DNA from: a virus
Taxonomy: Duplodnaviria > Caudoviricetes
IMG/VR virus record: IMGVR_UViG_3300037493_001856
Coordinates: 1-62,362 of that record
Reading direction: 5' to 3' (one strand)
DNA length: 62,362 bases
Below the pieces are notes generated by a model. It worked only from the letters and a program-made list of their open reading frames with translations, was not told where the DNA came from and made no database searches. Positions 11,349 to 39,463 of the stretch are shown one piece after another (the stretch's first letter is position 1; each line of letters opens with the position of its first letter). A program made the translations under genes and the position numbers.

Positions 11349-11608
11349 TGGCACTCAAGACACTTGGCGCACGGACGTTTGCCGCGCTGGCGTTCGGAGC
11401 GCTGACGCTCCACGGAACTGTTACTGTACCGAGCGGGAGCGTAGCCTCTCCGTCGAGCGGCAGCGGGGCAGGAGGCAGAGCCACTCGACAGATCGCTGTC
11501 CAGTCAGCCCCCGAAGAATTCCATGACGCTATACGGCGCGGTAGAATCAAGCAGGAAGACGAAGAGTTGACAGTGCTCGTCACTGCATTTTTAAGGACGA
11601 TGACATGA
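11348..11608 (+). CDS. Hypothetical protein
   Basis: Coupled ORF. Confidence 0.5.
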   Translation: MALKTLGARTFAALAFGALTLHGTVTVPSGSVASPSSGSGAGGRATRQIAVQSAPEEFHDAIRRGRIKQEDEELTVLVTAFLRTMT

Positions 11609-14600: not shown

Positions 14601-16962
14601 GGCCAAGCTCATCAAGGACATCTTCAAGTCCGGTCACCAGAACCGCGAAGACATGCGCGCGATCATGCGCAAGCTGAAGCTCAACGACTCCATACTGAGG
14701 GTTACCCAGCTGGAGGGGCCCTACGCTCCGTTGCGCCGCTTCGGCAACTACATGGCCGAGGTCAAGTCGAAGCGGGTTCTCGAACTTGAGGCGCTGCTGG
14801 AGAATGCCAAGAAGGACTACGCGACCACCGAGGACGCCAAGACCGACAAGGCGAAGGAAGAGCGCAAGGGGCTCAAGGCTATGCGCGAGGAGCTGGACGG
14901 CCTGCTGCGGGACGGCGACCACTACTCTCTGACGTTCCACGACACGGTCGGCTTGGCCAAGCGCACCGAACGGGAGCTGATGGCTACCAAGAAGTACGCG
15001 GCGTCTTACTCAGGCGAGCGGATCGACGCACCGTACAACAACCAGTCGATGCCACAGGACGTTCTGCAGCGGGTGCTTGGCGAGATAAAGACGCAGCAGC
15101 TTACCGGCGGAGCCACGGAGCAGATTCGTGGTCAGCTTGAGCAGATGGTCAAAGATATGTACCAGCGCACGACGGAGGACCACATGGCCCGCCAGTCGAT
15201 GAAGCCCCGGAAGTACCGGTTTGGTGCTGACCCTGACATGCTCCGCGCGTTCGGTGCGCAGGCTCGCGCTGATGCGATTTTCCTCTCTCACATGGAGCAC
15301 GGCAGCGACCTGACCGAGGCCACCAGCGAGATGTACCAGAAGGCCCGGGCCTCGGATAACGAGCGCATCGTCAGCGCGACGAACACGGCTCTGGCGCACC
15401 AGCGCGCGATGGCGACCTACGAGGAAACCCCGTTCCAAGACACAGTCAAGAGCACCCTGTCGATCTGGCAGCTGGCCCTGAACCCTGCCTATCATGTCCA
15501 GAACGCCACTCAGACGTTCATGAAGTCCCTGCCGATGATCGCCTCGGAGTTCGCCGGAAAGCCGGGAGCGAGCTGGTCTGCGGATTACGCTCAAGCGTGG
15601 AAGCTGGTGCAGGACGGTTACAAGGATTGGAAGACCTTCGTCGAGAAGGGCGAGATCAAGTTCGACAAGATCAAGGACAAGGGTCTGCGCGAGATGATGC
15701 AGCACGCCGCGCGGCGCAACCTGATCGACGTGGGCTTAGTGGATGACTTCCAGCAGTTCGACCAGTTCCAGACCGGGTTTGACTCCATCGACGCCGGCAT
15801 CCGTTACGCTGGCCGGGCCGCGCACAAGGTCCGTCAAATGTCCCGGCACGTCGAGCGCATGAACCGTGTCTCGGCAGCATCTGCTGCGTACAAGATGGCG
15901 ATGGCCAAGGGTGAGAACCAAGCTGACGCCGAGATGTTCGCTATCCGCGTTCTGGAGCAGACGCAGGGGGATAACTCCCGCCTCGACGCCCCGCTCATCA
16001 TCAAGAAGATGCCCAAGATTCTGACGATCTACAAGCGCTACCAGCTCATGGTGGCGGCGCTGTACGTGAAGGCTTTCCACGACGCATTCAAAGGCGAGTC
16101 ACAAGAGATTCGGGCAGTCGGTCGCCGGATGCTGGGCCTGCAGCTGATGCACGCGTTCGCGATGGGCGGCGTGATGGGCCTGCCGCTGATCAATCTGGCC
16201 AAGATTGTGCTACCGATGATTTTCGCCGGCGACGACGAGCCGGACGACGAGGACTGGCTGGACCGCCAGCTGGGCGATGCTGGTGTGCCGAAGTGGATCA
16301 TGAAGGGCGCGCTCCACGAGCTGCTGGGGCTGGATACCGGAGCCAAGCTGGGCGACCAGAACGTGTTCTCGATCTTGCCCTACACCGAACTCAAGATGAC
16401 CAAGCAGGGCGCAGCCGATGTTGCTGTGGGGCTACTCGGGCCGGTCGGCACCGAGGCTATGCGCTGGGCCGATGGTGTGGCGCGAATCAAGGAAGGCGAT
16501 TTCGAGGCGGGCGTGGTCAAGATGCTCCCGCGCGGGGCGTCGAACGCGATCACCTCATGGCAGATGGCCCACGAGGGCATCAAGGTGCGCAACGGCGACG
16601 TACTGGTGCGCCCGGAAGATATCAGCACGATCCAGACCATGCTCGCCGGCTTGGGCCTGCCCTCGGCACAGATCAACGACTTCCGCTGGGTTCAATCTCA
16701 GCAGATCAAGATCAACAAGTTCTACATCGAGGCCGAACGTCAGCTGCGCAAGGACTACATTGATGCGTCCAAGGACGGCGGAGACACCACGGGCATCATC
16801 AGTCAGTGGGAGAACCTGCAAGCAGCCAAGGTGACGATGCGCCCTTACTTCAACGACGAGCCCACCGCTCTCAAGTCCAAGCCCCTGCGCCTGCTGTTTG
16901 AGTCAACGAAGAAACAAGCTGAACGGGAAGCCGAATCGCAAGCACAGTTCGCTACCGAGTAG
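11605..16962 (+). CDS. Large polyvalent protein (metallopeptidase-like + ADP-ribosyltransferase-like + PLxRFG + C-terminal helical domain)
   Basis: HEIGAH; FKRWFGDS.VVD..GEPL.VY.GT; YAPLRRFG; 1785 aa. Confidence 0.75.
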   Translation: MSLRACIRKHKGVNFDALMATAAAYPAGTEQERLQRATDEIITHFRNERTDILAQIYKQAKKPLPKETVNAPQAPEAVESQSAETPQETAAAPLPNPLAKYVPANLSENVPDDVVKVLNDIKGADETPTAVRQEAADYLDMIFDAEGTESYGDEVTDARAWLTDVVAKHQTKKGPVRTVVSAPAGAPTNKKAKQGSVPNIASQMGVTAEDANAPAIEEKVVVQPTLTAAAVTQILTPEQKKDVKDYYGGKQAAAIESLAADYARWKTDPLTFIGHPMRSVLEHIRKKASTQFSKTVPNTPEERTTVQAIKQALRSWFLNPEQAASRLVVVQKWEDLSQAIRDRVAEAQKSVLKVTDYSGDTAYVFSNPERVQALNLLAKRENHDQIRGFMDDSGRITHVFPSAGLTHGRVANQLGFAQIHTADGKNHEFGSDYWFKSDLGEIMYPVYISGNEHQLSWHSIMGTKTGVIPDSAFGGVQFSKSLTNIQAFVLDGKGYMIADNISSGNEMAVFMHEIGAHIGLDGQEAQIMERVNLWRTSPEGSTEKRVFDAMQARMEAAGEVSDSEKVAYAVEEAVKAGVTPREVKMGMKLSDVKSAQDLVSWFAQYFKAAVDAVFKTNTRGFNAQQLVDMAYGAARDAMQNQEVGADVTAMSKKGFGPVDVMSSAFKRWFGDSPVVDDAGEPLLVYTGTSKDKDFTKFNVPKRGVWFTSDRDSASGYAQDNESRGLKAIPGKWNYEEVNTASRVIPAYLSIQKMYTMTPEDMKVINVPGYKAAQGRFFDTLRSQDYDGADFGGGVYVVLGSPTQIKSSVSNTGEFSDTNPDIKFSIAASLPPQFRNIAGSRSLQILDQVREAGTIIANNFGSLSNMVRRMEKQFPAIKKWHDVIVDIAEARTIREQVADDILQRAGQLNNDTRNTVNAFIFDSTWNQKWAYDPGFERTYAVDKDWDAKFPSRRFSVEDRAKVKSAFEAGKEEVKLTDQPKTVDPEYKRRLDAIAKATPNAAKLIKDIFKSGHQNREDMRAIMRKLKLNDSILRVTQLEGPYAPLRRFGNYMAEVKSKRVLELEALLENAKKDYATTEDAKTDKAKEERKGLKAMREELDGLLRDGDHYSLTFHDTVGLAKRTERELMATKKYAASYSGERIDAPYNNQSMPQDVLQRVLGEIKTQQLTGGATEQIRGQLEQMVKDMYQRTTEDHMARQSMKPRKYRFGADPDMLRAFGAQARADAIFLSHMEHGSDLTEATSEMYQKARASDNERIVSATNTALAHQRAMATYEETPFQDTVKSTLSIWQLALNPAYHVQNATQTFMKSLPMIASEFAGKPGASWSADYAQAWKLVQDGYKDWKTFVEKGEIKFDKIKDKGLREMMQHAARRNLIDVGLVDDFQQFDQFQTGFDSIDAGIRYAGRAAHKVRQMSRHVERMNRVSAASAAYKMAMAKGENQADAEMFAIRVLEQTQGDNSRLDAPLIIKKMPKILTIYKRYQLMVAALYVKAFHDAFKGESQEIRAVGRRMLGLQLMHAFAMGGVMGLPLINLAKIVLPMIFAGDDEPDDEDWLDRQLGDAGVPKWIMKGALHELLGLDTGAKLGDQNVFSILPYTELKMTKQGAADVAVGLLGPVGTEAMRWADGVARIKEGDFEAGVVKMLPRGASNAITSWQMAHEGIKVRNGDVLVRPEDISTIQTMLAGLGLPSAQINDFRWVQSQQIKINKFYIEAERQLRKDYIDASKDGGDTTGIISQWENLQAAKVTMRPYFNDEPTALKSKPLRLLFESTKKQAEREAESQAQFATE

Positions 16963-27831: not shown

Positions 27832-28067
27832 ACTCTGACTTCGTTATCCAACGCACGGACGGTGAACTTCACCGTGCCGCTCTCTTGTTTTGCGTACCTT
27901 GCTGCGGCTCCGCGAAGCCGGTTCTCGACGCGGCTCTGTTCCTCCTGTGTTGTGGTTTTAAGTGCGAACGAATGCCCGACTGACATCTGGGCAAACGGAT
28001 ACGTGGGGTCCTTCTTGGCCTCCCGAGTTATCGGGGGGATCGGTACGTCGGTTTCGATTTGGATCAT
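27816..28067 (-). CDS. Small putative DNA-binding protein
   Basis: IETDVPIP...YPF..M.VG.SF...VRVWR conserved phage motif. Confidence 0.65.
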   Translation of the reverse strand: MIQIETDVPIPPITREAKKDPTYPFAQMSVGHSFALKTTTQEEQSRVENRLRGAAARYAKQESGTVKFTVRALDNEVRVWRTA

Positions 28068-28405
28068 CCTCCTGCCCTCGCAATCTCCCTCTGCAGATAC
28101 CACACGGCCTTCGCTAAATCCTGCACGTAGTTGCCCTTCTCGTTACTACGCCAGATGTACTTGATCGCGTTGCCCACGCAGAAGTTGAAATGCTCCGTGA
28201 CTTGGATGCACTCGACACCGGACGGGTGGGAGGTGTAATGGTACGGGTGATTCACGGGGTCGTCTGTTGCGGCAATTTTACTTGGTTGTCCCCAACGGAA
28301 ATCATCCTCCGCGTCGTCAATCACTTTCACCCGTGCTGCTTCCTCCACCTTCGCTGCCTTGCGACGTGCCCATGATGCCTTCATTGCTTTGCTTCGGTCC
28401 TTCAT
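28064..28405 (-). CDS. DUF3310 (T7 gp1.7-like nucleotide kinase family)
   Basis: DPVNHP.HY...VECI...GNAIKYIWR...DL.KA.WYL; strong RBS. Confidence 0.85.
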   Translation of the reverse strand: MKDRSKAMKASWARRKAAKVEEAARVKVIDDAEDDFRWGQPSKIAATDDPVNHPYHYTSHPSGVECIQVTEHFNFCVGNAIKYIWRSNEKGNYVQDLAKAVWYLQREIARAGG

Positions 28406-28509
28406 TTGATTCTCCTTTCGGTGTATTACGCTTAGTTTATTGACACTATCTTGACCACTCATGTCCGCAGTCAGGACAGCGGAGCGCCACCGTGCGGTCT
28501 TGCTCTTGG

Positions 28510-28773
28510 TCATTTCGCTTCTCCTTCCTCGCTGCCAAACAACAGCGTCGGGATGTGCTGAAACACGCTCTCTGGACGATCCCAAGTTTTCTCGGCCCAA
28601 GTGACTGTGTCGATAAACCACTTGCGAAACTCAGCCGGGTCGCGTCCCTCGGCCATCTCAGCCAGCATGATGTAGTCGCGTAAATGGAACAACTCGCCTT
28701 TGGAATTGCTGTCGAAGATGCGCTTTTCATACTCCTCGATGTTCAGAGCTTTCAGTGCTTCTTGAAATGTCAT
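28510..28773 (-). CDS. Hypothetical protein
   Basis: RBS GGAGG. Confidence 0.55.
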   Translation of the reverse strand: MTFQEALKALNIEEYEKRIFDSNSKGELFHLRDYIMLAEMAEGRDPAEFRKWFIDTVTWAEKTWDRPESVFQHIPTLLFGSEEGEAK

Positions 28774-28792
28774 TTCAATCCTCCCGGTAGCA

Positions 28793-29089
28793 TCATGGCT
28801 TCACCTCTCCTGCTGTAGGCACCCGAGCGGCTAGGCGTTCGATCATGTCGGCGGCACGATCCATAAGCACATCACAGTCACCGGCATTTGGCTCGCCCCG
28901 CAACCTCTCCACCATCTCCCGCACTTCCTCGGACGATGGGGCCGCACGCGCAGAAGTGGCCGTCTCCTCTAGTGCCTCGCGGAGTTGGTCGGCGGAATAA
29001 GACGCTTCCCATCCCCCGCCTTCGTTCGGTGCGGTAAGTTGGTTCGGCATCGTTGGGTACTTTGGATTCCACCAGTGAGTGGGCCTCAT
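28793..29089 (-). CDS. Mosaic hypothetical protein
   Basis: Shares blocks with 29621..30181. Confidence 0.55.
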   Translation of the reverse strand: MRPTHWWNPKYPTMPNQLTAPNEGGGWEASYSADQLREALEETATSARAAPSSEEVREMVERLRGEPNAGDCDVLMDRAADMIERLAARVPTAGEVKP

Positions 29090-29436
29090 GTCTGCTCCTT
29101 CCACTGTTTGATTGCGGCGAGTGCTACGCATAGTTCATGGTCATCATCCAGTTGCCGCTTCTTGATGTGATGGGCAATTACCTCCTCCATCTTCTCCAAC
29201 AACGCGCAGAGTTCGAGGATGGTGGCGGGATCACAGGCAGCGATAAACCTAGCGTTCTTTGGATAGAAGATAACGTCACGAATCAGATCGCTGTACTTAT
29301 ACCAGCGTGGGTTCTCGTTATGGTCTGTTACGCTTGCAGCCTTCGCTGCTTCGACCAGTGCGGTTAGCTTGTTCACCACTTTCGGCTTCCTGACAGAAGC
29401 ACCGCCGAGGCCATCCATTCCTAGTTTGTCGAGCAT
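29086..29436 (-). CDS. Mosaic hypothetical protein (Ead/Ea22-like motif)
   Basis: NARFIAACDPATILEL motif; shares blocks with 30178..31107. Confidence 0.55.
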   Translation of the reverse strand: MLDKLGMDGLGGASVRKPKVVNKLTALVEAAKAASVTDHNENPRWYKYSDLIRDVIFYPKNARFIAACDPATILELCALLEKMEEVIAHHIKKRQLDDDHELCVALAAIKQWKEQT

Positions 29437-29624
29437 GGCAACACCACCTTTAGCCCCAGACCGTTTGCTATCAGGCTGATCGCCATCTCATTCAGCATCT
29501 CTTGGTTGCCAAACAGAATCTTTCCATGCTCCGTATGTATGGCGAAGGCAAGTGTTCTTTCACCATTGGCGTACAGGTAGTCGATGAACTTACCGCAGTC
29601 GGTTTTGAGTTCTTCGTTGGTCAT
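29421..29624 (-). CDS. Hypothetical protein
   Basis: ATGA-coupled; RBS GAGGTG. Confidence 0.55.
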   Translation of the reverse strand: MTNEELKTDCGKFIDYLYANGERTLAFAIHTEHGKILFGNQEMLNEMAISLIANGLGLKVVLPCSTN

Positions 29625-30181
29625 GGCTTCACCTCTCCTGCTGCGATCAGCGCATTCCACTGGTCTTGATACGTCCGGTAGTTTCCCGGTGTAGCGATGA
29701 CACAACGGGCATCCTCTGTGACTTTCCGCCGCACAACCACGCACCCGTCAGGAACCCGAGCGGCTAGGCGTTCGATCAGGTCGGCGGCTTGTTCTTGAAG
29801 CCGGAACAAATCTACCTCATCATTCCTCAACCTCTCCGCCATCTCCCGCACTTCCTCGGACGATGGGGCCGCACACAACGCATCACCCTTGTACCGTCCG
29901 GGCATGATTGTTTCTTGCTGTGGTGCGGGTTCAGTGAGTGGTGGTGCGGTGAAGAACGGTTCCCATCCTCCACCATCATAGGGCTTGGTAAGTTGAACTG
30001 ACAATGATGGGTAACTAGGGTTCCACCAACCGCGTGGCTCCTGCCCCTCCACATAGGCGGCGATCAGGCGGGTGGCGAAGTAGGTAAGCCTCGCTTCTGT
30101 GAAACAAACCTCAGAAGGTTCTACCGTCCACACGCCTACGTCTATAGCAACTTTCAGCGCGAGTTCCTTGATGTCGGTCAT
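29621..30181 (-). CDS. Mosaic hypothetical protein
   Basis: Shares blocks with 28793..29089. Confidence 0.55.
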   Translation of the reverse strand: MTDIKELALKVAIDVGVWTVEPSEVCFTEARLTYFATRLIAAYVEGQEPRGWWNPSYPSLSVQLTKPYDGGGWEPFFTAPPLTEPAPQQETIMPGRYKGDALCAAPSSEEVREMAERLRNDEVDLFRLQEQAADLIERLAARVPDGCVVVRRKVTEDARCVIATPGNYRTYQDQWNALIAAGEVKP

Positions 30182-31107
30182 GTCTTGCTCCTTTCGATTT
30201 CGTCAATCAAGCGGCGAAGCTCTAGTTCAACCGCAGTACTTGTGTGTTCCGATCCACGCCCTGTAAAACGAGCAGCCGCCTCACGCAGTACCTCCACCTT
30301 CGCTTGCCGGAGTTGGTCGGCGATTGCAGCTAAATCCGATTGACGCACCGACAGAAGATTCTCGTGTTGCTGTCGCCACTCGTTACGATCGTTGGTCATA
30401 GCTTCAAGTTTCTTGGCGTAGGCCATCATTCCTTTGCCCGCGCCTTCAATCTCTCCGCAGTGCCTACATGCCGGCCTCATGTCTGATCCTTTCCACTGTT
30501 TGATTGCGGCGAGGGTTTCGGTAACTGCAATATCCAGAGAGCTACTCGGCCACATGTTCATTACCTTTTGAGTGTCTGCAAGAACGTCCTCTGCCTTCTC
30601 CAACAGGGCGCAGAGTTCGAGGATGGTGTCGCCGTAACCGTTAAGCGCATCAGCATACCGTTCCCGCTCCTGCGCCAGCCGATCCATCAGCGCGGAGTCG
30701 TCGGTTGGGTGGGCGAGTGCCTTCTTCGCTACACACCCACCGCAGTCGGTGTATCCATCCCCTCCTCGGCCACACCAACCTTCGCAGTATTGATCTTCGT
30801 AGTATTGCAGCGCCTCCCGCAGCTTCGCCTCCTGTGCTTGAGCGGCTTGCAATTCGCGCAGGTAGTGATCACGCTCGTCGAGCGCCTTGTGCGTGAGTTC
30901 GTCGGCTTGTGCGGCGGCGAGTTGTTCGCGCAGTTCAATAATTACACCGGAAGCATGTAACAAGTTCGCTTCATCCTCAGCAACCTGAGCGCGTAGGGCT
31001 TCGATGTCGTCAGGCTCATGGCCTGCTTGCCAGTTGTGGTTCATTTCATGTATCTCCCGTTGTGTCAGCGCATCCAACGTCATCGTCATTTCAGCGAGTT
31101 GGCCCAT
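30178..31107 (-). CDS. Mosaic coiled-coil hypothetical protein (probable two-gene fusion)
   Basis: Contains a gene-junction module with a 1-nt insertion near 30491. Confidence 0.55.
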   Translation of the reverse strand: MGQLAEMTMTLDALTQREIHEMNHNWQAGHEPDDIEALRAQVAEDEANLLHASGVIIELREQLAAAQADELTHKALDERDHYLRELQAAQAQEAKLREALQYYEDQYCEGWCGRGGDGYTDCGGCVAKKALAHPTDDSALMDRLAQERERYADALNGYGDTILELCALLEKAEDVLADTQKVMNMWPSSSLDIAVTETLAAIKQWKGSDMRPACRHCGEIEGAGKGMMAYAKKLEAMTNDRNEWRQQHENLLSVRQSDLAAIADQLRQAKVEVLREAAARFTGRGSEHTSTAVELELRRLIDEIERSKT

Positions 31108-31292
31108 CGCAGCTCATCAGACCGTGACCACGCTCTGGGAAGAAGAGCTTGCGTCACGGCGGCGAGTTGTTCTCGGTAGTGATCAGCCTCGTTGATCCAT
31201 CCATCCCGCTCCTGTGTCAGCCCAGCAACCTTCTCACGCAGGGCTTCGATTTCTGTTTGCAGTTCTTGCGGTGATTTGTTTAGGTCACTCAT
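31086..31292 (-). CDS. Hypothetical protein
   Basis: RBS AAGGAG; IEALR and REQLAA shared with the downstream ORF. Confidence 0.5.
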   Translation of the reverse strand: MSDLNKSPQELQTEIEALREKVAGLTQERDGWINEADHYREQLAAVTQALLPRAWSRSDELRWANSLK

Positions 31293-31327
31293 CGGGTTCT
31301 CCTTGTAAGGCTTCCTTCGTTCTCCGT

Positions 31328-31455
31328 GTCTAACTTGCCAGTTCATTTCACTCTCCTTTGATTGTCCGGTATTCGACAGGATGTTTGGCTTCAACGGGTT
31401 ACCGCCGCGTGATGGAATGTTTTGCGTCTTTTAGGGGGTCTACTTAGCGTTATGC
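31328..31455 (+). mobile_element. Degenerate att-like site 1 (array boundary; long attC-like or attI-like)
   Basis: GTCTAAC at 31328 and GGTCTAC-ttagc-GTTATGC ending 31455; no good internal stem. Confidence 0.5.
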
Positions 31456-31707
31456 CCCTTCGGGTACGGCAACCGTGTTGTGCGGGCACCGATCAAGGCA
31501 AACCAACCGCCGAAGCTCAACCACATCACCCTCCTTTTCGCCGTAGCGTTTCCATGCCGTTGTCGATAGCGGCCCGAACAGCACGGCTCCGATCATCTCC
31601 CCCGCTTCGTAGAGCGCAAACGCCATGCTCACCTTGCAGCCGTTGATGCTCTTGCTGTAGTGGTGTTCCTCAATGAATGGCCGCACTACCGCAACCGCCA
31701 CGGGCAT
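31450..31707 (-). pseudogene. Cassette 1: N-terminal fragment of a Mom-like (GNAT) DNA-modification protein
   Basis: FIEEHHYS...IGAVLFG...VELRRLVC.D.CPHNT then early stop in the att core; no clear RBS. Confidence 0.55.
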
Positions 31708-31779
31708 AACACGGCGGTCAACACGGACGCCTGCCGGCGATAAAGCCGCCGTCATGCGCCGGTTACCTCAGCGTTAGCC
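31704..31779 (+). mobile_element. attC site 2
   Basis: GCATAAC..GGT[C]AAC[A]CGG[A]CGC / GCGCCGGTTACC..GTTAGCC. Confidence 0.9.
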
Positions 31780-31780
31780 G

Positions 31781-32002
31781 TCACCATGACATCGTGTCGC
31801 GCAGGGTGGAAATCTTCACGTTGTAAAGGCCTGTAGCCTTCATTTCTTCCATCGCGTTTTCCAACATCGCCAGCCGTTCCTTCTGCTCGGCAATCTTGCG
31901 CTCCAAGTTCTCGCCGCACGTCATCTGCTGCATCGGGTCTTTGTCTTTGCAGTAGCCAAGGGTATTCCCTGCCGGCATCATCACTTGGTTTCCTTCGTAC
32001 AT
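31781..32002 (-). CDS. Cassette 2: coiled-coil hypothetical protein
   Basis: RBS AAGGA; fills the cassette. Confidence 0.65.
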   Translation of the reverse strand: MYEGNQVMMPAGNTLGYCKDKDPMQQMTCGENLERKIAEQKERLAMLENAMEEMKATGLYNVKISTLRDTMSW

Positions 32003-32044
32003 GGTCATTCCTTTATTCAGTTGCCGTGGTTTACGTGGGCGCAC

Positions 32045-32111
32045 GGCTAACCCGTCGTTCCAGCGGAGCTACGCAATAAGGCCGCTTGCGCCGGTTATTT
32101 CTGCGTTAGCC
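32045..32111 (+). mobile_element. attC site 3 (hybrid, mismatched arms)
   Basis: GGCTAAC..TTCCAGCGGAGCTACGC / GCGCCGGTTATT..GTTAGCC. Confidence 0.75.
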
Positions 32112-32112
32112 G

Positions 32113-32370
32113 TCACAGTTGCGTGTATCCGCTCTCGAAAGCGCCTGCCGGTGAAAACGACTTGTAGCCGTCCTCATAGACCACGTAGTAGCCGCCGACT
32201 TCGGGCTTGTGTTTTGCCACGTATTCCGGCGACAGCGGCACTTTGTCGTAGCCTTCTTCGGCGGGCTGGAAATACACACCACCGTGCTGGTCGCCAACAA
32301 TCCCGGCAATCTTCAAAGCCCACACTTTCTTGTGGCATTCGTACTTCGGCATTTCGCGGCTTGCGTTCAT
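32113..32370 (-). CDS. Cassette 3: phage protein with YYVVYEDGYKSFSP..FE.GY motif
   Basis: RBS GAGGA; motif resembles the domain often fused N-terminally to DUF2829. Confidence 0.65.
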   Translation of the reverse strand: MNASREMPKYECHKKVWALKIAGIVGDQHGGVYFQPAEEGYDKVPLSPEYVAKHKPEVGGYYVVYEDGYKSFSPAGAFESGYTQL

Positions 32371-32409
32371 GTTTCTGTCCTCAAAAACCGTGGCTTCATC
32401 GGGCGTCAC

Positions 32410-32467
32410 GGCTAACCCGTCAATCAACCCGGACGGCTTTCAGCCGCCGGTTAGCTCTACGTTAGGC
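32410..32467 (+). mobile_element. attC site 4
   Basis: GGCTAAC..T[C]AAC[C]CGG[A]CGGC / GCCGCCGGTTAG..GTTAGGC. Confidence 0.9.
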
Positions 32468-32991
32468 CCCATGCCGAGTAGTGCTGTTAACTTTATCGGA
32501 GCGCAATTCGCCCCGTTCGCTTGCACTCCGTTCAACCTTGGGCGCAGGCAGTGGATATAAAGCGACTCCAACCTGTCCAGAGCATCAACAGAGCACGGAA
32601 CGAACGCATAGCGGTCAAACCGCTTTCCTGTGTGCTGTCCAATCCGAGAGTAGACATTCACGGCCTGCCCGACGTAAACAACCTCGTCCCCGTCGAGCAA
32701 GAAATACACCCCACTTGCCTTCGCCCACGGCAAGGCCGCTTTCGCTATTTCGTCCTCTCTCAGAAGCGCCGATCCAACCACAGCAGCAGAAACGGAGTGC
32801 ATTGTTTCCATGCGTTGCAGCGCGTCTAGCCTTTCTTCCAGTTCGGCTATCTGGCGGTGCAGTCCGCCAGCGTATTTGAGCGCATCTTGTCTTGCCGCAT
32901 CTTCAGCATCACGTCTTGCTCGGCGCGTAGCGTGGGCCTTTGCAGCAATCGCCTTGCGTTCTTCTGGCGTCTTGTTTTGCATCGGGTTCAT
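32440..32991 (-). CDS. Cassette 4: GIY-YIG-domain protein
   Basis: SGVYFL...VVYVGQA...SRI..H...LE..YI...P.LN; RBS GGAGG; C-terminus reads into attC 4 (PNVELTGG). Confidence 0.75.
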   Translation of the reverse strand: MNPMQNKTPEERKAIAAKAHATRRARRDAEDAARQDALKYAGGLHRQIAELEERLDALQRMETMHSVSAAVVGSALLREDEIAKAALPWAKASGVYFLLDGDEVVYVGQAVNVYSRIGQHTGKRFDRYAFVPCSVDALDRLESLYIHCLRPRLNGVQANGANCAPIKLTALLGMGPNVELTGG

Positions 32992-33003
32992 TTTTCCTCC
33001 AGT

Positions 33004-33060
33004 GCCTAACCCGGCAGTCCAGCGGACGCCGTGCCGGCGCCGCTGACTTTTGCGTTAGGC
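33004..33060 (+). mobile_element. attC site 5
   Basis: GCCTAAC..AGTC[C]AGCGG[A]CGCCG / CGGCGCCGCTGACT..GTTAGGC. Confidence 0.92.
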
Positions 33061-33327
33061 ACACCACCCGCAACAACCGAATGACAGCCCTGCCTCAAGC
33101 TGTCCGGCAATGATCGAGTATTCAGCCTCGTTGATTCCGTATTTCTCCAGCACTTCTGGTTTCGGCGGAACGCGAGTAAATTGCATGTCACCGCAAGCGT
33201 AGTACTCTGCGTTTTCGGCGTCCCTGTCGTATTTCTCTCCAAAGTCTTCGCTGTCGGCGTCAATGTCGTTAATCGTGAAAGTCGGCGTGTAACACAGTGC
33301 CGATCCAAATTCGAGTTCGAGTTTCAT
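33055..33327 (-). CDS. Cassette 5: acidic Cys-containing hypothetical protein
   Basis: RBS AGGAG; ends GCCGWCA with its stop inside the att core. Confidence 0.7.
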   Translation of the reverse strand: MKLELEFGSALCYTPTFTINDIDADSEDFGEKYDRDAENAEYYACGDMQFTRVPPKPEVLEKYGINEAEYSIIAGQLEAGLSFGCCGWCA

Positions 33328-33341
33328 GCTCTCTCCTGTGT

Positions 33342-33404
33342 GCCTAACATTTGCGTCAACGCGGACGCTTCGCAAGCTACGCGCCGGTTACGCCAGCGTT
33401 AGGA
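33342..33404 (+). mobile_element. attC site 6
   Basis: GCCTAAC..GCGT[C]AAC[G]CGG[A]CGC / GCGCCGGTTACGC..GTTAGGA. Confidence 0.9.
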
Positions 33405-33605
33405 ACCGCGCCGCACATCGGCCAGCGCCTTCGATAAATCCATGCTTGCCCGTTTCGCTGCCGCGCAGTGCTGCCCGCCGCAATAGTAGGGGTCTCCCTT
33501 GGCGTATTCAGTGCTTCCAGCGCACCGCTTCACAACGTCTGCCACTGCCAAAAACCTCTTGGCTTCGGCAACGGCTTTGTCCAGCGTCTTTACTCTAATG
33601 CTCAT
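33399..33605 (-). CDS. Cassette 6: small helical hypothetical protein
   Basis: AVAEAKRFL...AAAKRASMDLS.ALA..R; stop inside the att core. Confidence 0.7.
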   Translation of the reverse strand: MSIRVKTLDKAVAEAKRFLAVADVVKRCAGSTEYAKGDPYYCGGQHCAAAKRASMDLSKALADVRRGS

Positions 33606-33611
33606 GTCGTT

Positions 33612-33667
33612 TCCTAACCCTTCATTCAACCCGGACGCCTTCGGCGCCGGTTAATTCCACGTTAGAC
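33612..33667 (+). mobile_element. attC site 7
   Basis: TCCTAAC..ATT[C]AAC[C]CGG[A]CGCC-ttc-GGCGCCGGTTAAT..GTTAGAC. Confidence 0.92.
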
Positions 33668-33835
33668 ATCTATGAACACGACCCACTTCGGTTCTGACGC
33701 GGGCTTACGGTAGTGCGTTGCCTGCACATCTTCGGCATCATTCCAGTCGCCAGCCTCGTTGCGCACTTCAACCCTCGCATCCCCGTAGTCGGCGCGCATC
33801 TTCTCCAGCTTGGCGATCAATTCGTTTATGGTCAT
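33662..33835 (-). CDS. Hypothetical protein flanking the array
   Basis: MTINELIAKLE...YGD; stop TAA lies in the GTTAGAC core. Confidence 0.6.
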   Translation of the reverse strand: MTINELIAKLEKMRADYGDARVEVRNEAGDWNDAEDVQATHYRKPASEPKWVVFIDV

Positions 33836-33837
33836 CT

Positions 33838-33996
33838 TCAAATCTCCACAGGGTAGTCTGCCAGCCACGCCAGCCGCGCCCACTCATCACGATGCCGAGC
33901 GAGATAGGCTACATGGTCAGGGTTACGTCCGGTGTTCCGTGCGAAATCGCAGTCCCACCTTGTCAGCCAGTGCATGACACGGTAGAAGTGTTTCAT
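33838..33996 (-). CDS. Hypothetical protein
   Basis: Coupled small ORF with purine-rich RBS. Confidence 0.5.
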   Translation of the reverse strand: MKHFYRVMHWLTRWDCDFARNTGRNPDHVAYLARHRDEWARLAWLADYPVEI

Positions 33997-34235
33997 TTCC
34001 TTCCCTCCTTCACGGCGAGATACTTCCAATACGCTCGGCCCTGCGTTCCCATGATGTAGGTGCACTCGTCAGCGGTGCTGTACACAGGCGTCATGCCCAT
34101 CACCTTGGCGCAGACCTTGGGTGCTTGTGTGGAGCGTTCTTCCCCTATCCATAGCCCTGAGACGAAACAGGCAATAGACCAGCAGAGAAAAAACACGATG
34201 ACATCGGGGTAGAAGGCTTTACGGTTTGGGTTCAT
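33993..34235 (-). CDS. Small membrane protein
   Basis: One hydrophobic segment; ATGA coupling. Confidence 0.55.
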   Translation of the reverse strand: MNPNRKAFYPDVIVFFLCWSIACFVSGLWIGEERSTQAPKVCAKVMGMTPVYSTADECTYIMGTQGRAYWKYLAVKEGRK

Positions 34236-34441
34236 CCCCGCACCCACAACTCACGCCTAGCAGCGATAAACCCAGCGTTTTTAAGTTGCGCCGCTGTTAC
34301 GGTAGGCCGAGGGGTTTTCTTGGTGTGTCCCGGCAGGACGAACTCATCTTGATTATGGTACGACGGGACGATGGTTAAGTTGCCCTTTACATAAACGGTG
34401 CAAGGGGCTGTCGGGGCTTCGTTAAAGTCTGCTGCTTTCAT
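34232..34441 (-). CDS. Hypothetical protein
   Basis: ATGA coupling. Confidence 0.55.
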   Translation of the reverse strand: MKAADFNEAPTAPCTVYVKGNLTIVPSYHNQDEFVLPGHTKKTPRPTVTAAQLKNAGFIAARRELWVRG

Positions 34442-34614
34442 TTCGTTTTCCTTTCGATTGGTTTGTCATTAACCTTCTTTGCCATTGCAAGCCTGTGGTG
34501 CTCGGGGCAGAGAACCCCTCCGCCGTTGCTGTACTGCCCGATGCGGTGGCATCGCTTACCTGATTGCGTCTTGGCAGTGCATTGCATCCGGTCTTGTTCG
34601 TAGGAGTGATTCAT
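34438..34614 (-). CDS. Small Cys/His zinc-finger-like protein
   Basis: CTAKT.SGKRC...C.EH. Confidence 0.55.
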   Translation of the reverse strand: MNHSYEQDRMQCTAKTQSGKRCHRIGQYSNGGGVLCPEHHRLAMAKKVNDKPIERKTK

Positions 34615-34808
34615 ACACACCCCTTCCGCAAGAGACTCTCCCTCATGTACTGGAGCTTGGCCTGCATGTTGTGCAGTTCATCTTCAGCATATTGTCTCTC
34701 AACCCTTGCCCCCGCCTCACGGCGACGTTGCCTTGCGACGAACAGCTTGTATGAATCCACGGCTTGCGAGTACGCGATGATCTCTGCTTGCTCTTGTGGG
34801 ATGGTCAT
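34611..34808 (-). CDS. Hypothetical protein
   Basis: Coupled ORF. Confidence 0.5.
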   Translation of the reverse strand: MTIPQEQAEIIAYSQAVDSYKLFVARQRRREAGARVERQYAEDELHNMQAKLQYMRESLLRKGCV

Positions 34809-35008
34809 TTCCTGCTCTCCCATTCCCTGTCGTACTCGCGCTCACGCGCCAGATCGTTCTCGTAGTCAGCCTTGGCACACTGGTTCTCGTACCAATCCTC
34901 ACCATCGGACTCAACACCCGTACCCCGGCAAGATGAGCATCGAGAACCATCGTACATACCCTCGCCTGAACCGTTGCAGGTGGGGCAGAGTGGTTCGTCG
35001 TCGGTCAT
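34805..35008 (-). CDS. DnaJ-type zinc-finger small protein
   Basis: CPTCNGSG...CSSCRGTG. Confidence 0.7.
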   Translation of the reverse strand: MTDDEPLCPTCNGSGEGMYDGSRCSSCRGTGVESDGEDWYENQCAKADYENDLAREREYDREWESRK

Positions 35009-35137
35009 TTCAGTACCTCCATCGCATCAGCATACGCCTTGCATTTCATCGGGTCTTTCTGGAACTGCCGGGATAACTCGGCATATGCGACGAGTAGTGC
35101 TTTAAGTATGTTGCGCATTGTGTATCTCCTTGGGTGA

Positions 35138-35166
35138 ATAGTACGCATGTCTCACCCTGATGTCAA
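35138..35166 (-). promoter_or_regulatory. Sigma70-like promoter TTGACA-17-TACTAT driving the small-ORF/cassette operon
   Basis: Near-consensus; followed by RBS AAGGAG and ATG at 35118. Confidence 0.7.
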
Positions 35167-35204
35167 GCAAGACATGCGTGGAACTCGTTGTGAGATTCTC
35201 ACAG

Positions 35205-36056
35205 TCAGCCGCAAAGACCTTGCATCTGACGCAAAATCTCGTTGGTCTTGTCGATCACCGACGTGCGCAGGGCATCGTCCTTCTTGATGTCCTTCATCTC
35301 CAACCCGTTGGTCAGCTTGCGAATCTCCGACCGCATGGTGTCAATGCCAGCGTCATTGGTGATGTTCAGGCCGGGGAGCCTGTCGAGCAGGTCGACGATG
35401 TTGTCCAGTGCGGAGTCAACCAGCTTGCCGTCAGACTGCAGCCGGTCGCGCAGGTGGGAGACAGTACCCACAAGCTCCGTCCAAACAGACTCGACCATGC
35501 CCTGCACGCGAGAGTTGAGTGATGCTTCGATCTCCTGCCGCACCTCGTCGACGACATCGTCACCCATCTCCACACGGAAATCTCCGGCGACAGGCAGAGG
35601 CATGACGGTGAAGTCCATGTAGAACTTCTCGCGAATCTCCCACGACTGCGGGTAGTCGGCCTCGTTGAACAGCGAGTTCAGCCGCAGCTTGGCGCGGTCG
35701 CGGTGCATGTCGTAGTCACGGCAGAACACATCGACAGCATTCTTGAATTCAACCTTAAGTTCCCGCAAGCGATCCATCACGGTGAAGTAGTTGAGCGACG
35801 AGAGCACGCGGTCGCCGTTGTCCGACCACGGCAGGGTGTGCTGGTAGAAGAACCTGCGCGCAGCCCCGACGATCTGCACCATCGGCAGCAGGGAGTTTTT
35901 GTCAATGATCTGCTTGTTAAACCGTCCGGCATCAGACGCGGCGGCATGGTTCACCGTTACCTCCTGCGTGGCGGACTTGTCCAGCTTGCGTGCAGTCCAC
36001 TGGCCGATCTTGAGCGAGACCAGCATGGCTCGCGATGCGATGTTTTCAGTTGTCAT
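35205..36056 (-). CDS. DUF3150-like phage protein
   Basis: AMLVSL.I..WTARKLDK, TLPW.D.G.R, LFN..DYP, LNITND; co-occurs with MoxR/VWA. Confidence 0.6.
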   Translation of the reverse strand: MTTENIASRAMLVSLKIGQWTARKLDKSATQEVTVNHAAASDAGRFNKQIIDKNSLLPMVQIVGAARRFFYQHTLPWSDNGDRVLSSLNYFTVMDRLRELKVEFKNAVDVFCRDYDMHRDRAKLRLNSLFNEADYPQSWEIREKFYMDFTVMPLPVAGDFRVEMGDDVVDEVRQEIEASLNSRVQGMVESVWTELVGTVSHLRDRLQSDGKLVDSALDNIVDLLDRLPGLNITNDAGIDTMRSEIRKLTNGLEMKDIKKDDALRTSVIDKTNEILRQMQGLCG

Positions 36057-36258
36057 TTTGATTCCCCTGATTGAGGGCTATCAGCAGTCCGAACTTGGCT
36101 GCTTCAAGCGATTGAAATGGTCCTACGCGTTCATCGCCTACAGGCTCGACCCACCACGGCGGCGGGCTTCGCGCATCTATGTACATAAATGGCGTCGGCA
36201 GATTGCCGTTGACGATCACCGTGATCAACCCGTCGTTCTCCGAAAACACATAACTCAT
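36046..36258 (-). CDS. Hypothetical protein
   Basis: ATGA-coupled 70-aa ORF. Confidence 0.5.
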   Translation of the reverse strand: MSYVFSENDGLITVIVNGNLPTPFMYIDARSPPPWWVEPVGDERVGPFQSLEAAKFGLLIALNQGNQNDN

Positions 36259-37046
36259 GGGTGGTACTCCAAGTAAGGGGATTCGTACTGGTCGGCGCAG
36301 GCGAACGAGATCAGTTCCTTGAGGTCGTCGCGCACGCAGTTGTTTGCAATCGTCCGGCATACCTGCGCAGTTCTCTCCAGATCGTCGGTCGCCGCAGCAG
36401 ACAGGCGCTGCTGTGAGATTCTCACAACCGACTCGATATCCACAACATCGGGAGACAACGCCAGCTCGCGCAGCAACGTCGTGATCGACAGGTGTGATCC
36501 GATGGAGGACATCATCGATATGCGTACCTTGGCCTCGTTGACGAGACGCTTCCACCGAGGCATGAACTCTTTGACCCGCTTGCGGTTGATGACGCTGTAG
36601 CGAATCCGCTCCTCCTTCTCTTTTGCAGGCGGGCTGTCCGGCGAGGCATAGGTTACCCTCCCTGCTACGAGCGCAACACCGTGCTCACGATCACACCACA
36701 ACACCGGGTTATCGACGATACGGGACACCGGCACCTTCTGCTTGGTGTGCGGGCAGAACAGCTTACCTACAAACTCCTTGGCAAGGTCGAAATCAACGCC
36801 GAGCAGGCAGCGAATGTCATGCCTCCAGTCAGTGTCACGACCACCGTAACCACTCACGAACAGCGTGCCGTGAGGAGCGACGATTACTTCGCCGGCAGGT
36901 CCGACACTTGTCGCAAACGAGACTAGCGTACCGTTGTTGCGGACTGTCGCCGTTTTGTCGGTGTGTATCTGGAAATAGCCAGCTACATTCGTATCAGGCA
37001 GCTGTCGCCATGCGCTGTCCATGTACTGCGGGTGCTTGAGTTTCAT
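36255..37046 (-). CDS. Hypothetical protein
   Basis: RBS GGAGG; ATGA coupling. Confidence 0.6.
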   Translation of the reverse strand: MKLKHPQYMDSAWRQLPDTNVAGYFQIHTDKTATVRNNGTLVSFATSVGPAGEVIVAPHGTLFVSGYGGRDTDWRHDIRCLLGVDFDLAKEFVGKLFCPHTKQKVPVSRIVDNPVLWCDREHGVALVAGRVTYASPDSPPAKEKEERIRYSVINRKRVKEFMPRWKRLVNEAKVRISMMSSIGSHLSITTLLRELALSPDVVDIESVVRISQQRLSAAATDDLERTAQVCRTIANNCVRDDLKELISFACADQYESPYLEYHP

Positions 37047-37633
37047 ACCAAGTCCTCCATCATCTTGGTCATGGCGTTCTGCATGAAGCTGTGGTCGCAG
37101 AGCGTGTAAATATCCCGTCCACTGAGCTTGTCCTTCGGCATCTTGCCGCGCAGGTACTCCTTGCACTTGGCCGAGAGCACAGGCTCAGGCTTCCACACCT
37201 GCATCTCCAGACGCATACGGTCAGGCGGGGTCATGTCGGCCAGCGTCACATCTTGCTGGCGTAGCCACACATCGGACTGGAACTTCGCGACGTTGGCCGG
37301 CACGATGTACGTCCGGCTTGAGTCAAGCTCCACCTTGTTGTCTTGTATCGGGCCGTCATTTACCCAGATATGCCCTTTGTAGGTGTGTGTGTACATCCGG
37401 GTGAGGGTGTTGATGATCTTGACCGACGACGGGGTGTGCCATCCGTTGATCGTCACCGTCAGGCTGTTGTCGGGGCGCAGCGTGCCGACTCGCGTGCTGT
37501 ATGCCTTGAGGAGAATATCCTCGCCGGACATCGTCGCCCATATCTCGGGACGTTTGTTCACCTTGAGCTCGTTCTTGCGCCCTCGGTTCTTGGTCGTGAT
37601 GGTCTCACGCAGACTTGTGTACCTTAGTAGCAT
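37043..37633 (-). CDS. Hypothetical protein
   Basis: RBS AAGGAG. Confidence 0.6.
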   Translation of the reverse strand: MLLRYTSLRETITTKNRGRKNELKVNKRPEIWATMSGEDILLKAYSTRVGTLRPDNSLTVTINGWHTPSSVKIINTLTRMYTHTYKGHIWVNDGPIQDNKVELDSSRTYIVPANVAKFQSDVWLRQQDVTLADMTPPDRMRLEMQVWKPEPVLSAKCKEYLRGKMPKDKLSGRDIYTLCDHSFMQNAMTKMMEDLV

Positions 37634-37694
37634 GGTTCTACTCCTTGATTGAGCGCAGCTGATCCGCAGCTGCCACGGTGTTACTGTGAGAAAC

Positions 37695-38351
37695 TCACAG
37701 CTTGATGTTGTCGCCGAACGGACACTCGTCGGCGGTTGTTACGGTGATGTGCGGAGCCACCCGCTCCTCGAACACCCCTTTCTTGACCCACTTGTTTATC
37801 GTTGATGGGCAAACCCCTGCGAGCCGCGCCCATCCTGTAAGGTGATGTGTTGTACCTTGCACTGTCAGCCAGCGGTTCTGCCGCGGGTTTGCCCCTTGCT
37901 CGAGCGGTGTAGCCCACCGACAGTTGTCGGGTGAGTACGGGCCGTTGTTGTCCCGCCGGTCAAGCGACTTCCCTTCCGGCTTGAGCCCCATGTCACCCAA
38001 GAAGTTGGAGAACGTCCGCCACCTGTCACACACGGTAATCCCGCGACCTCCATACTTTGGGTATGCCTTGTCGTTCGGGTTCGTACAGCGTTGAGTCATC
38101 GCCTTCCAGATGCGATGCTCCGGCGTATTGCAAGCCCCGTGGACAATCTGGTGGTATGGCTCAAACCCTACGTACTGCCCACACCCACAGGACTTGGTGT
38201 TCCCAGACCGGAGCCGCCCTGTGGTGACGACAGTGACCTGCCCACAATCACAGGCGCACTCCCACGCAACGTTCCGCCCTTCGTGCACCCCTTGGCGGGT
38301 CACAACCAGCCGCCCAAACCGCCGACCGATCAAACACTTTTTCGCAGGCAT
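37695..38351 (-). CDS. HNH homing endonuclease
   Basis: GRRFGRL.V, C.CDCG, KSCGC, W..M..RC, YGGRGI.VC.RW, SLDR.DNNG.YSP.NCRWAT. Confidence 0.85.
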   Translation of the reverse strand: MPAKKCLIGRRFGRLVVTRQGVHEGRNVAWECACDCGQVTVVTTGRLRSGNTKSCGCGQYVGFEPYHQIVHGACNTPEHRIWKAMTQRCTNPNDKAYPKYGGRGITVCDRWRTFSNFLGDMGLKPEGKSLDRRDNNGPYSPDNCRWATPLEQGANPRQNRWLTVQGTTHHLTGWARLAGVCPSTINKWVKKGVFEERVAPHITVTTADECPFGDNIKL

Positions 38352-39463
38352 TAGTCCATCCTTATAACGTCCCCCCACGGAGGTATGACATCGGTCGTGA
38401 GGCACCATATCACCGGAAACTCAGGCGGCTCGGGGTCGTAGGGGGTTTCGCCGTCCGAGAGCCATATCATAACAACAGGTAGTGTATCACACTCACCGGC
38501 GAGCTTTGTAGCTGGCCTCAAGTCCGTACCACCACCCCCATGTACGTCAGCCTTGAGCTTCTCGCCATCTGCGTAATGGTCGACCGCCGTCACGCGCGCA
38601 TCGCACTGGATCACGGTCACGCACTCGGGCTTGCACTCGTCGCATATCGACTGGACCTCGTCGAGAAACTCTCCGACGCGGGCGACGATACTTCCGCTTG
38701 TGTCGATACCCACCACCACGCGCCCCATGCCGGGGTTGTGCAGAGCCGGCAGGTACATGCCCTGTGCCAAGAACCTGCGCTGCCCACGGTTCCACGACTG
38801 GTCGTTCTTCAAGACCTGAGTCATGTACCGGCGCAACTCCTCCCGCCAGTCGACCTTGGGTGCGAGTGCCTGCTCGACCAGACCTGCGAGAGACGCGGGG
38901 AGTGCCCCTTGAGCTTTGGCTTGGTTCGCGGCTTGCGTTATGCGTACCTTCGCCTCCGCCTCGGACTGCTGCCTCTCCTGCTCGTTACCGGGGGCGTCCA
39001 TGCAGTCATCGAACTGGTCGCCGTCACCTTGACCTGAACCTTGGCCGTCGTCGGGCGGCGGGTCGGGGAGCTTGTTATAGATTTCCTCGAACGCCTGCCC
39101 CTTGTACTGCGTACCATCGAGCCCCTCGGGCGGGAGCGAGAACCCTGCCTCGGCGATGATCGGATTGATCGCCAAGTCCATCGCTTGATTCGCCTTCTTG
39201 TGATTGCGCGAGCCCTTCCGCCACGGGTGCAGCATGGCAACGTGCATGACCTCGTGCACAAGAACTCCGCAGACTTCCTCAACAGACCATCGCGTGATCG
39301 CGTCGGGGTGGACGAACACAGACTTGCCGTTGGTAGCGGCAGTCGGCGGCTTGAGGCTAGCGTCTATCTTCAGGTCCATGCCCAGCAGGACAGATGCGAA
39401 GAACGGTGACCTCATGACCACGCGGGTCCGGGCCTTGGCCAGCTTGTCGTTAACGATGCTCAT
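38351..39463 (-). CDS. DUF2201 metallopeptidase + VWA-like protein
   Basis: TAATNG, HEVMH, DTSGS (MIDAS), GGGGTD, SDG. Confidence 0.85.
   Translation of the reverse strand: MSIVNDKLAKARTRVVMRSPFFASVLLGMDLKIDASLKPPTAATNGKSVFVHPDAITRWSVEEVCGVLVHEVMHVAMLHPWRKGSRNHKKANQAMDLAINPIIAEAGFSLPPEGLDGTQYKGQAFEEIYNKLPDPPPDDGQGSGQGDGDQFDDCMDAPGNEQERQQSEAEAKVRITQAANQAKAQGALPASLAGLVEQALAPKVDWREELRRYMTQVLKNDQSWNRGQRRFLAQGMYLPALHNPGMGRVVVGIDTSGSIVARVGEFLDEVQSICDECKPECVTVIQCDARVTAVDHYADGEKLKADVHGGGGTDLRPATKLAGECDTLPVVMIWLSDGETPYDPEPPEFPVIWCLTTDVIPPWGDVIRMD

Follow-up and report, generated by a model that had tools for sequence, protein, structure and literature searches.

Integrons are generally regarded as devices of bacteria, and attC arrays in phages have been described in a single paper, for a few isolates. 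The viral record IMGVR_UViG_3300037493_001856 (Duplodnaviria; Caudoviricetes), the whole 62,362 bases of which are referred to below as the window, contains a run of small genes separated by short hairpin-forming sites. The question raised by this locus is whether these sites are the attC sites of an integron-type cassette array, in a phage without an integrase, and if so, what exchanges the cassettes. The record represents a complete virus: its terminal repeats are direct, and CheckV rates it as 100% complete. A first-pass annotation, made from the sequence alone, had described the array and had proposed that the phage borrows a host IntI to gain, lose and reorder the cassettes. The observation is confirmed and the interpretation is partly supported. 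On sequence and predicted fold, the six sites qualify as genuine integron-type attC recombination sites, and in the sample drawn the phage arrays of this attC type are the mirror image of bacterial cassettes. We put the probability that these are true attC sites on which a host IntI acts in trans at around three in four.

Six attC-type sites and no integrase

The six sites (S1 to S6, Table 1) were recovered exactly where the first-pass annotation had placed them, with the boxes that it had described. The outer boxes follow RYYYAAC/GTTRRRY, YTAAC...CGTTAG is present in all six, and an R' box of the form GTTAGNN closes each site. The pattern TAAC-N38-66-CGTTAG occurs six times in the window, always on the + strand and always inside 31707-33665; 100 dinucleotide shuffles gave a mean of 1.15 matches and a maximum of 4, and 0 of 100 reached six. 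An alignment of the sites contains 22 invariant columns, and the consensus fold has 20 pairs, seven of which show changes on both sides. More explicitly, the fold consists of an outer R stem (YTAAC/GTTAG), five unpaired bases on each side and an inner L stem, which is interrupted on the left arm of the + strand only, by an invariant C, a middle base in four of six sites (missing from S2 and S4) and an A in five of six. This agrees with the earlier description of five sites with an unpaired C, in four of them a second base, and an A; the remaining site, S2, has mismatches in the L stem. The folds of S4 and S6 have six paired bases between the unpaired ones, from which S2 deviates. Compared with shuffles, the folds of S4, S6 and S3 reached z-scores of -5.4, -2.6 and -2.0, and those of S1, S2 and S5 on the + strand -1.3, -0.5 and -0.5. 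Taken singly, S3, S4, S6 and the minus strand of S1 thus fold clearly better than shuffles, unlike S2 and S5. Of the two strands, the minus strand has the lower energy in six of six sites.

It has been established that the arm carrying the extrahelical bases of an attC site faces the cleaved bottom-strand AAC, that the spacers measure 5-6 nt, that a 6-bp stem separates the first from the last extrahelical base, and that the bottom strand is the stabler one (PMC5027507, as described in its text). With the + strand taken as the attC top strand, the phage sites conform to these rules, and their lengths of 56-76 bp were counted as falling within the attC range of 57-141 bp. As a control on this choice of strand we used the loci that also encode an IntI homologue, in which 52 of 54 sites recognized by the model described below were arranged canonically, their top strand pointing away from intI.

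The six sites were used to build a covariance model (R1), which recovered all of them in the window at 53-75 bits; its sole other match there was weak (12.4 bits, E 1.7). When applied to 50 kb of plasmid R100 it gave a single match, at the attC of aadA1 and in the sense of that gene (41.5 bits, E 3e-8). Such cross-detection is a reciprocal test and differs from the standard test with the IntegronFinder/HattCI models. The R100 aadA1 site (NC_002134) shares with the phage sites the length class, the order of boxes, spacers and stems, and the unpaired C and A on the arm next to the first TAAC; S6 resembles it over its whole length. The two situations differ in gene placement: in R100 the top strand carries aadA1 ahead of its attC, beside intI1 and attI1, whereas in the phage the gene occupies the opposite strand and intI is missing. 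The attC architecture that the first-pass annotation had claimed is therefore borne out by the structure of the sites and by the cross-detection of a real attC, but not by the orientation of the genes.

Neither the tyrosine recombinases (PF00589), nor the integron integrase (TIGR02249), nor the serine recombinases (PF00239) were matched in a six-frame search of the complete record, with positive controls in 14, 14 and 12 of 14 reference genomes, respectively; the earlier statement that the genome lacks a recognizable tyrosine or serine recombinase thus holds, and extends to the IntI profile. The locus does not qualify as a complete integron (intI, attI and Pc beside the array), as TIGR02249 and PF00589 both remained at 0 matches. 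It does correspond to an attC cluster without integrase (CALIN), which has been defined as at least two co-oriented attC sites within 4 kb of each other with no intI nearby (PMC4889954): six co-oriented sites lie within 2 kb and the complete record has no intI match anywhere. Among ten other viral records, the three at 100% completeness had no tyrosine recombinase match, one that is 88% complete had a match of 70 bits and one that is 75% complete had a sub-threshold match of 17 bits. Four IMG/VR contigs (L040, L058, L104 and L109) encode IntI homologues that are 53-57% identical to IntI1, beside attC sites of canonical geometry; these contigs may be temperate phages with integrons or bacterial fragments.

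Reversed orientation of the viral cassettes

Exactly one open reading frame (ORF) lies between each pair of neighbouring sites, as had been noted before, and all five of these ORFs are on the minus strand, which had gone unmentioned. All five genes being antisense to the attC top strand, the cassette here reads as attC followed by gene in the direction of transcription.

To place this in a wider context, loci were collected with a degenerate pattern fitted to the six sites, which matched at least 118 IMG/VR contig stretches and at least 120 stretches of bacterial or archaeal genome contigs. All loci were fetched with this one pattern from this phage, meaning that the orientation result holds for this attC type, and the IMG/VR labels are predictions. 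The 80 titles among the bacterial/archaeal matches listed were mostly from Betaproteobacteria (genera of the Burkholderiales, Nitrosomonadales and Rhodocyclales type) and Gammaproteobacteria. For every interval between neighbouring co-oriented R1 sites the coding strand was scored by codon log-odds, for which 493 long ORFs of the fetched loci served as the training set. In the window (6 sites) this gave 5 antisense cassettes, 0 sense and 0 unclear. The 118 viral loci (359 sites) contained 194 antisense cassettes, 1 sense and 39 unclear, and after copies had been merged at 95% identity 186, 1 and 39, respectively. In the 119 bacterial loci (284 sites) the numbers were 28 antisense, 72 sense and 60 unclear.

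The viral result is corroborated by a control that does not depend on the codon model, in which 120 antisense ORFs drawn at random from the 186 matched 60 PHROG families (E <=1e-5), while 120 frames drawn from 185 longest sense-strand open frames had no PHROG match. This control replaced a test for frames open over at least 90% of the interval, which was dropped because it is too crude in G+C-rich DNA: it found 73 viral cassettes open on both strands, 87 on neither and 24 on the sense strand only. For 18 of the latter 24 the codon score still pointed to an antisense ORF, over 48-88% of the interval; it indicated the sense strand for 1 and gave no clear answer for 5. Open sense frames of this kind are frequent among viral cassettes, and the window has one of 154 amino acids at 32001-32465 on the + strand, running across S2 and gene 2 into S3, which was rejected as a shadow frame of the minus-strand gene. 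The flanks of the viral arrays code on the strand of the cassette genes in 126 of 150 cases.

Within the IntI-linked bacterial loci, 13 cassettes were sense, 6 antisense and 6 unclear. At the four IMG/VR-labelled loci with IntI, all 4 classifiable cassettes were antisense. Ten ORFs of antisense cassettes from IntI-linked arrays were compared with PHROG, and 2 of the 10 matched; on the broader proposal given at the end, such cassettes could be stored phage genes.

Cassettes, their sharing and their breakpoints

The array sits within the minus-strand early operon of a virulent-type phage. Genes of the record are on the + strand over ~1-17 kb and 42.7-62 kb and on the minus strand over 17-42 kb, the latter block encoding a primase/helicase, a helicase, a DNA polymerase of the family-A type and an ATPase. 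The features of the array and the blocks shared with other contigs are collected in Table 1.

Table 1. Features of the cassette array (positions are those of the window)
Feature	Position	Strand	Remarks
S0 module (GTCTAAC...CGTTAT), 123-128 bp	31328..31455	+	right end abuts truncated Mom-like gene
Truncated Mom-like gene	31450..31755	-	Pfam Mom PF25680, positions 4-85 of 202 only; phrog_1384 at 1e-21
S1 (76 bp)	31704..31779	+	R'' GCATAAC, R' GTTAGCC; R1 66.3 bits; minus strand -23.2 kcal/mol, z -3.4
Cassette gene 1 (75-87 aa)	31781..32044	-	no family match; homologue in L066 (81% amino acid identity); codon score favours minus strand
S2 (67 bp)	32045..32111	+	R1 53.2 bits, weakest of the six; L-stem mismatches; folds no better than shuffles
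Cassette gene 2 (85 aa, ATG 32370)	32113..32370	-	viral family, phrog_11049 at 2.6e-24
S3 (58 bp)	32410..32467	+	R1 74.7 bits; moves with the gene to its left (32113-32370)
Cassette gene 3 (183 aa), GIY-YIG nuclease-like	32440..32991	-	Pfam GIY-YIG 4.6e-4, below cut-off
S4 (57 bp)	33004..33060	+	R1 73.7 bits; fold z -5.4 and -4.95; two unpaired bases with a 6-bp stem between
Cassette gene 4 (90 aa, ATG 33327)	33055..33327	-	no family match; TAA stop in R' box of S4
S5 (63 bp)	33342..33404	+	R1 67.2 bits
Cassette gene 5 (68 aa, ATG 33605)	33399..33605	-	no clear family; TAA stop in R' box of S5
S6 (56 bp)	33612..33667	+	R1 70.8 bits; final site; R' box contains stop codon of resident gene
Resident early gene	33662..33883	-	immediately upstream of the array in transcription direction
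Block shared with L065	31473..31721		88% nucleotide identity
Block shared with L066	31772..32117		82% nucleotide identity
Block shared with L100	32093..32465		91% nucleotide identity
Block shared with L013	32104..32473		89% nucleotide identity

The clearest case of sharing is that of gene 2, whose protein is 95% identical to the copy in L100 and 88% identical to that in L013, and whose nearest Atlas clusters are 76-93% viral. In a base-by-base alignment, the homology of the block 32104-32465 with both contigs extends from the CGTTAG of S2 to just past the CGTTAG of S3, with unrelated DNA on either flank. Gene 2 thus travels with the site to its right, S3, and the two together form the unit expected from a crossover at top-strand G|TT. 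In terms of transcription, the site preceding each gene is the one that moves with it. Single sites are shared as well, S4 being 100% identical over 54 nt in L017, S6 100% over 53 nt in L088 and S5 98% in L046. Compared with other phage contigs, the gene content differs in cassette-sized blocks that end on a GTT box, and the sets of cassettes vary between complete phages, with sites of the same kind at their boundaries.

Four other sequencing runs, from four studies (sediment, two lakes and wastewater), contributed Logan contigs whose ends fall at the GTT boxes of all six sites: at 31775 (S1), 32103-32107 (S2, three runs), 32464/5 (S3), 33057 (S4), 33403 (S5) and 33660 (S6). Joints between neighbouring sites with only 21-29 nt on a side were excluded as possible repeat artefacts, and the small word shares in runs X3-X24 were not taken as grounds for naming habitats other than those of the four runs. 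One wastewater contig corresponds to 32460-33057, from box to box, with 18 mismatches in 598 positions. In one lake contig the gene-2 cassette is joined, via a different loop and right arm, straight to 33660-33835 (1 mismatch); this would be a relative without the three intervening cassettes, and needs caution as it was assembled through repeats. The summed contig depth of the gene-2 cassette with its S3-type site (32154-32495) was several thousand in wastewater run X5, far above that of the remaining stretch, and given this depth the combination is carried by many abundant genomes in that run.

Breakpoints were also mapped in 256 pairs of sites from different loci, not independent of each other, that have the same hairpin and unrelated right flanks. 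Divergence begins between +3 and +15 from the G in 218 of the 256. The converse situation, a shared right flank without a shared hairpin, was found in 11 pairs, and here the sharing starts at -2 to 0 in 7 of 11. The earlier expectation that relatives would differ exactly at G/TT is thus supported by the gene-2 block, the contig ends and the majority of the pairs, but not by the remaining 38, to which we return below.

Among the other cassettes, gene 3 has viral clusters named GIY-YIG nuclease as its nearest Atlas neighbours, and its reading frame extends into S3 and stops in the loop of that site. The TAA stop codons of gene 4, gene 5 and the resident upstream gene lie within the R' box of the next site. 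The Mom-like gene at the far end probably starts at ATG 31707, inside the R'' box of S1, and is cut after about 85 residues, to continue in a short unrelated tail. A full-length relative of 212 amino acids is present in L065 (7521-8159) and is 93% identical over the shared part; the remaining part of the Mom family was found nowhere else in the genome. The 120 cassette ORFs sampled from viral arrays (L002-L119) matched DNA methyltransferase families most commonly among the PHROGs, with phrog_67 hit by 8 of the 120 (best E 1e-62), which suggests an anti-restriction cargo.

The position 31328, given in the first-pass annotation as the start of the array, marks the S0 element. It was considered as a seventh attC and rejected, as R1 gives it at most 3 bits and its fold is not better than that of shuffles. 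The part 31329-31451 (123 bp, bounded by TCTAAC and CGTT) is found again in contigs of runs X2 and X3, as a self-contained block between unrelated flanks. S0 may be either a cassette without an ORF or a regulatory module that has replaced the 3' part of the Mom-like gene.

Within 30900-35200, no promoter-like match and no intrinsic terminator was found at the six sites; the three terminator-like matches in this region lie elsewhere, and the sites have no T-run. The sole sigma-70-like match in this region, at 35138-35166 on the minus strand (TTGACA, 17 nt, TACTAT), lies ahead of the array in the sense of transcription; 2.1 such matches would be expected by chance. Outside the array, the record has an ORF of 1785 amino acids at 11605-16962 on the + strand, in the structural block, and no tRNA genes were found in the record. 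A megablast search with 28000-38000 (10 kb around the array) against 50,697 GenBank phages gave zero matches. No related locus was found via the 283-aa neighbour protein, and the 309-aa neighbour led to a single one, L240, the contig of which stops 1.4 kb upstream of the gene; the one site that is visible there again has its bottom strand in the sense of the operon.

Weighing of the readings and meaning for phage biology

A number of observations weigh against true attC sites that are recombined by IntI. The canonical cassette layout, a gene on the top strand followed by its attC, is absent, with five of five genes on the attC bottom strand. When R1 was applied to TJE1, a phage with a published array, no match was obtained at E up to 1, and a strict scan for boxes plus hairpin found no site there either. 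As to the breakpoints, divergence falls inside the right spacer in 38 of the 256 pairs, which is a misfit to a G|TT crossover; the S3 copies of L013 and L100 have an identical hairpin and differ from S3 in 3 of the 6 right-spacer bases; in other metagenomes the same left arm occurs with different loops; and the same site types adjoin unrelated left-hand genes, with loose ends at the R'' boxes. The unrelated left-hand genes, the loop variants and the spacer differences are not explained by crossover at R' alone. Sequence drift, exchange within sites, or site types inherited from the formation of the cassettes are possible sources of these misfits. Finally, the Logan evidence consists of assembled contigs rather than raw reads, in which rare excision products are invisible and repeats can mislead the assembler.

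Some of these misfits would fit with hairpins that act primarily at the RNA level, in processing, stability or translational control, with shuffling by homologous recombination between the repeated 60-bp sites and with a likeness to attC that is convergent or a relic. A precedent of a kind exists in the promoter/stem-loop modules of T4-type phages, where repeated hairpin intergenic elements flank small accessory early genes and the content varies by module; these modules contain promoters, and their exchange has been ascribed to homologous recombination. What sets the sites described here apart from such modules is the anatomy of attC and the lack of a promoter-like match. In line with an RNA function, the transcript carries the stabler bottom-strand version in all five cassettes of the window and in 194 of the 195 classifiable viral cassettes, the minus strand folds better in every one of the six sites, some breakpoints lie within the site (the 38 pairs and the loop variants), and the sites that are 98-100% identical between contigs would support homologous exchange. 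An RNA function does not account for the asymmetric unpaired bases at exact attC spacing, for the cross-detection of the aadA1 attC, or for the same site type, in canonical geometry at 52 of 54 sites, in IntI-linked arrays. Furthermore, the 218 breakpoints coincide with an R' box of 7-8 nt, which is too short for efficient homologous recombination, and a terminator-type T-run is missing. We therefore regard this explanation as unlikely.

Less probable still is an inert relic, in which one illegitimate event captured a piece of a bacterial integron array that has since been carried passively, without continuing exchange. The lack of an integrase match, the truncation of the Mom-like cassette gene and the degenerate state of S2 would all fit, but the genes are of phage type and transcribed with the operon, and the flanks of viral arrays mostly code on the strand of the cassette genes. 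Moreover, a single bacterial capture would have brought mostly sense cassettes, considering the 72 sense against 28 antisense in the bacterial loci, whereas the viral loci hold 186 distinct antisense cassettes and complete phages differ in their sets while using the same kind of site. Least probable, and in our view improbable, is a phage-encoded enzyme from outside the recombinase families searched. The nuclease-like genes in or near the array, for the GIY-YIG protein (32440-32991) and a 370-aa HNH-type protein (38351-39463), provide candidates, and the part played by a host enzyme is itself inferred. Yet the GIY-YIG gene is a cassette and absent from the other arrays examined, and in every feature tested the sites correspond to the substrate of IntI, an enzyme already known. 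To our knowledge, neither the GIY-YIG nor the HNH family is known for conservative site-specific exchange, which also counts against an enzyme of this kind.

Returning to attC sites used by a host integrase, the array would be a CALIN in a minus-strand early operon, in which each cassette, on the + strand, starts at the TT of a GTT box and stops at the G of the following one. Transcription of a cassette would pass first through an attC hairpin and then through one small gene, which often ends in the TAA of the next box. When the phage infects a bacterium with an integron, most likely one of the Beta- or Gammaproteobacteria, the IntI of that host would fold and recombine the bottom strands, and would in this way add, remove or swap cassettes from a pool common to many unrelated phages. 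That IntI is the recombining enzyme we infer from the sites, together with published assays on other phage attC sites: IntI1 recombined 5 of 6 tested attC sites from virulent phages (PMC9892861, in the text of that paper). With the reversal, the bottom strand, which is the recombinogenic one, becomes the non-template strand of the operon and, if the genes run with the replication fork, also the lagging-strand template, which would favour folding. Such exposure of the strand is a plausible reason for the orientation in phages, given that in Vibrio cholerae a bottom strand on the lagging-strand template was reported to raise excision from <7e-5 to 3e-2 (Richard et al. 2024, PMC13108822). The sedentary chromosomal integrons described in the text of that paper likewise have long arrays with few near-identical site types common to unrelated cassettes; unlike the phage arrays, they lie beside intI and have mostly sense cassettes, and the parallel with the phage is a tentative one.

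Integrase-less phage attC arrays are already in print: Qi et al. 2023 (PMC9892861) reported 17 of them among 10,705 phage isolate genomes, some of these virulent, and with this publication the novelty of the idea in the first-pass annotation is limited. The arrays in their text have in common with ours the combination of attC sites and small genes, the lack of an integron integrase, the proposed use of a host IntI and DNA methyltransferases as common cargo. They differ in being described as resembling typical bacterial arrays, whereas here all genes are on the bottom strand, and in number, as against 17 arrays one narrow site pattern matches at least 118 IMG/VR stretches. A full-text literature search found no other papers on phage attC arrays and no report of a reversed gene orientation in them, and this orientation is thus a property not found in the literature searched. 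The words antisense, opposite and reverse are missing from the main text of PMC9892861, the figures and supplements of which may show orientations.

A broader proposal, to which we give somewhat less than even odds, is that phages keep a shared pool of their own of reverse-oriented cassettes, with the attC upstream and the recombinogenic bottom strand coding, whose cargo, with many DNA methyltransferases and other small early or counter-defence genes, is exchanged among unrelated integrase-less phages via host IntI. If this is true, the position of the recombinogenic strand on the non-template strand (and probably on the lagging-strand template) would make the arrays recombine far more readily during a short infection, and phage cassettes would be silent after capture at the attI of a host integron. 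More generally, the data indicate that arrays of this type are common among the phages of metagenomes, with a cargo of hundreds of distinct small genes. Annotation software that relies on the order gene-then-attC would assign these cassettes wrongly. If host IntI drives the exchange, phages shuffle their accessory and counter-defence genes with a recombination system that belongs to bacteria, and the fixed reversal would then be a testable clue to the control of integron recombination by strand exposure and to the separation, at the level of expression, of the phage and bacterial cassette pools.

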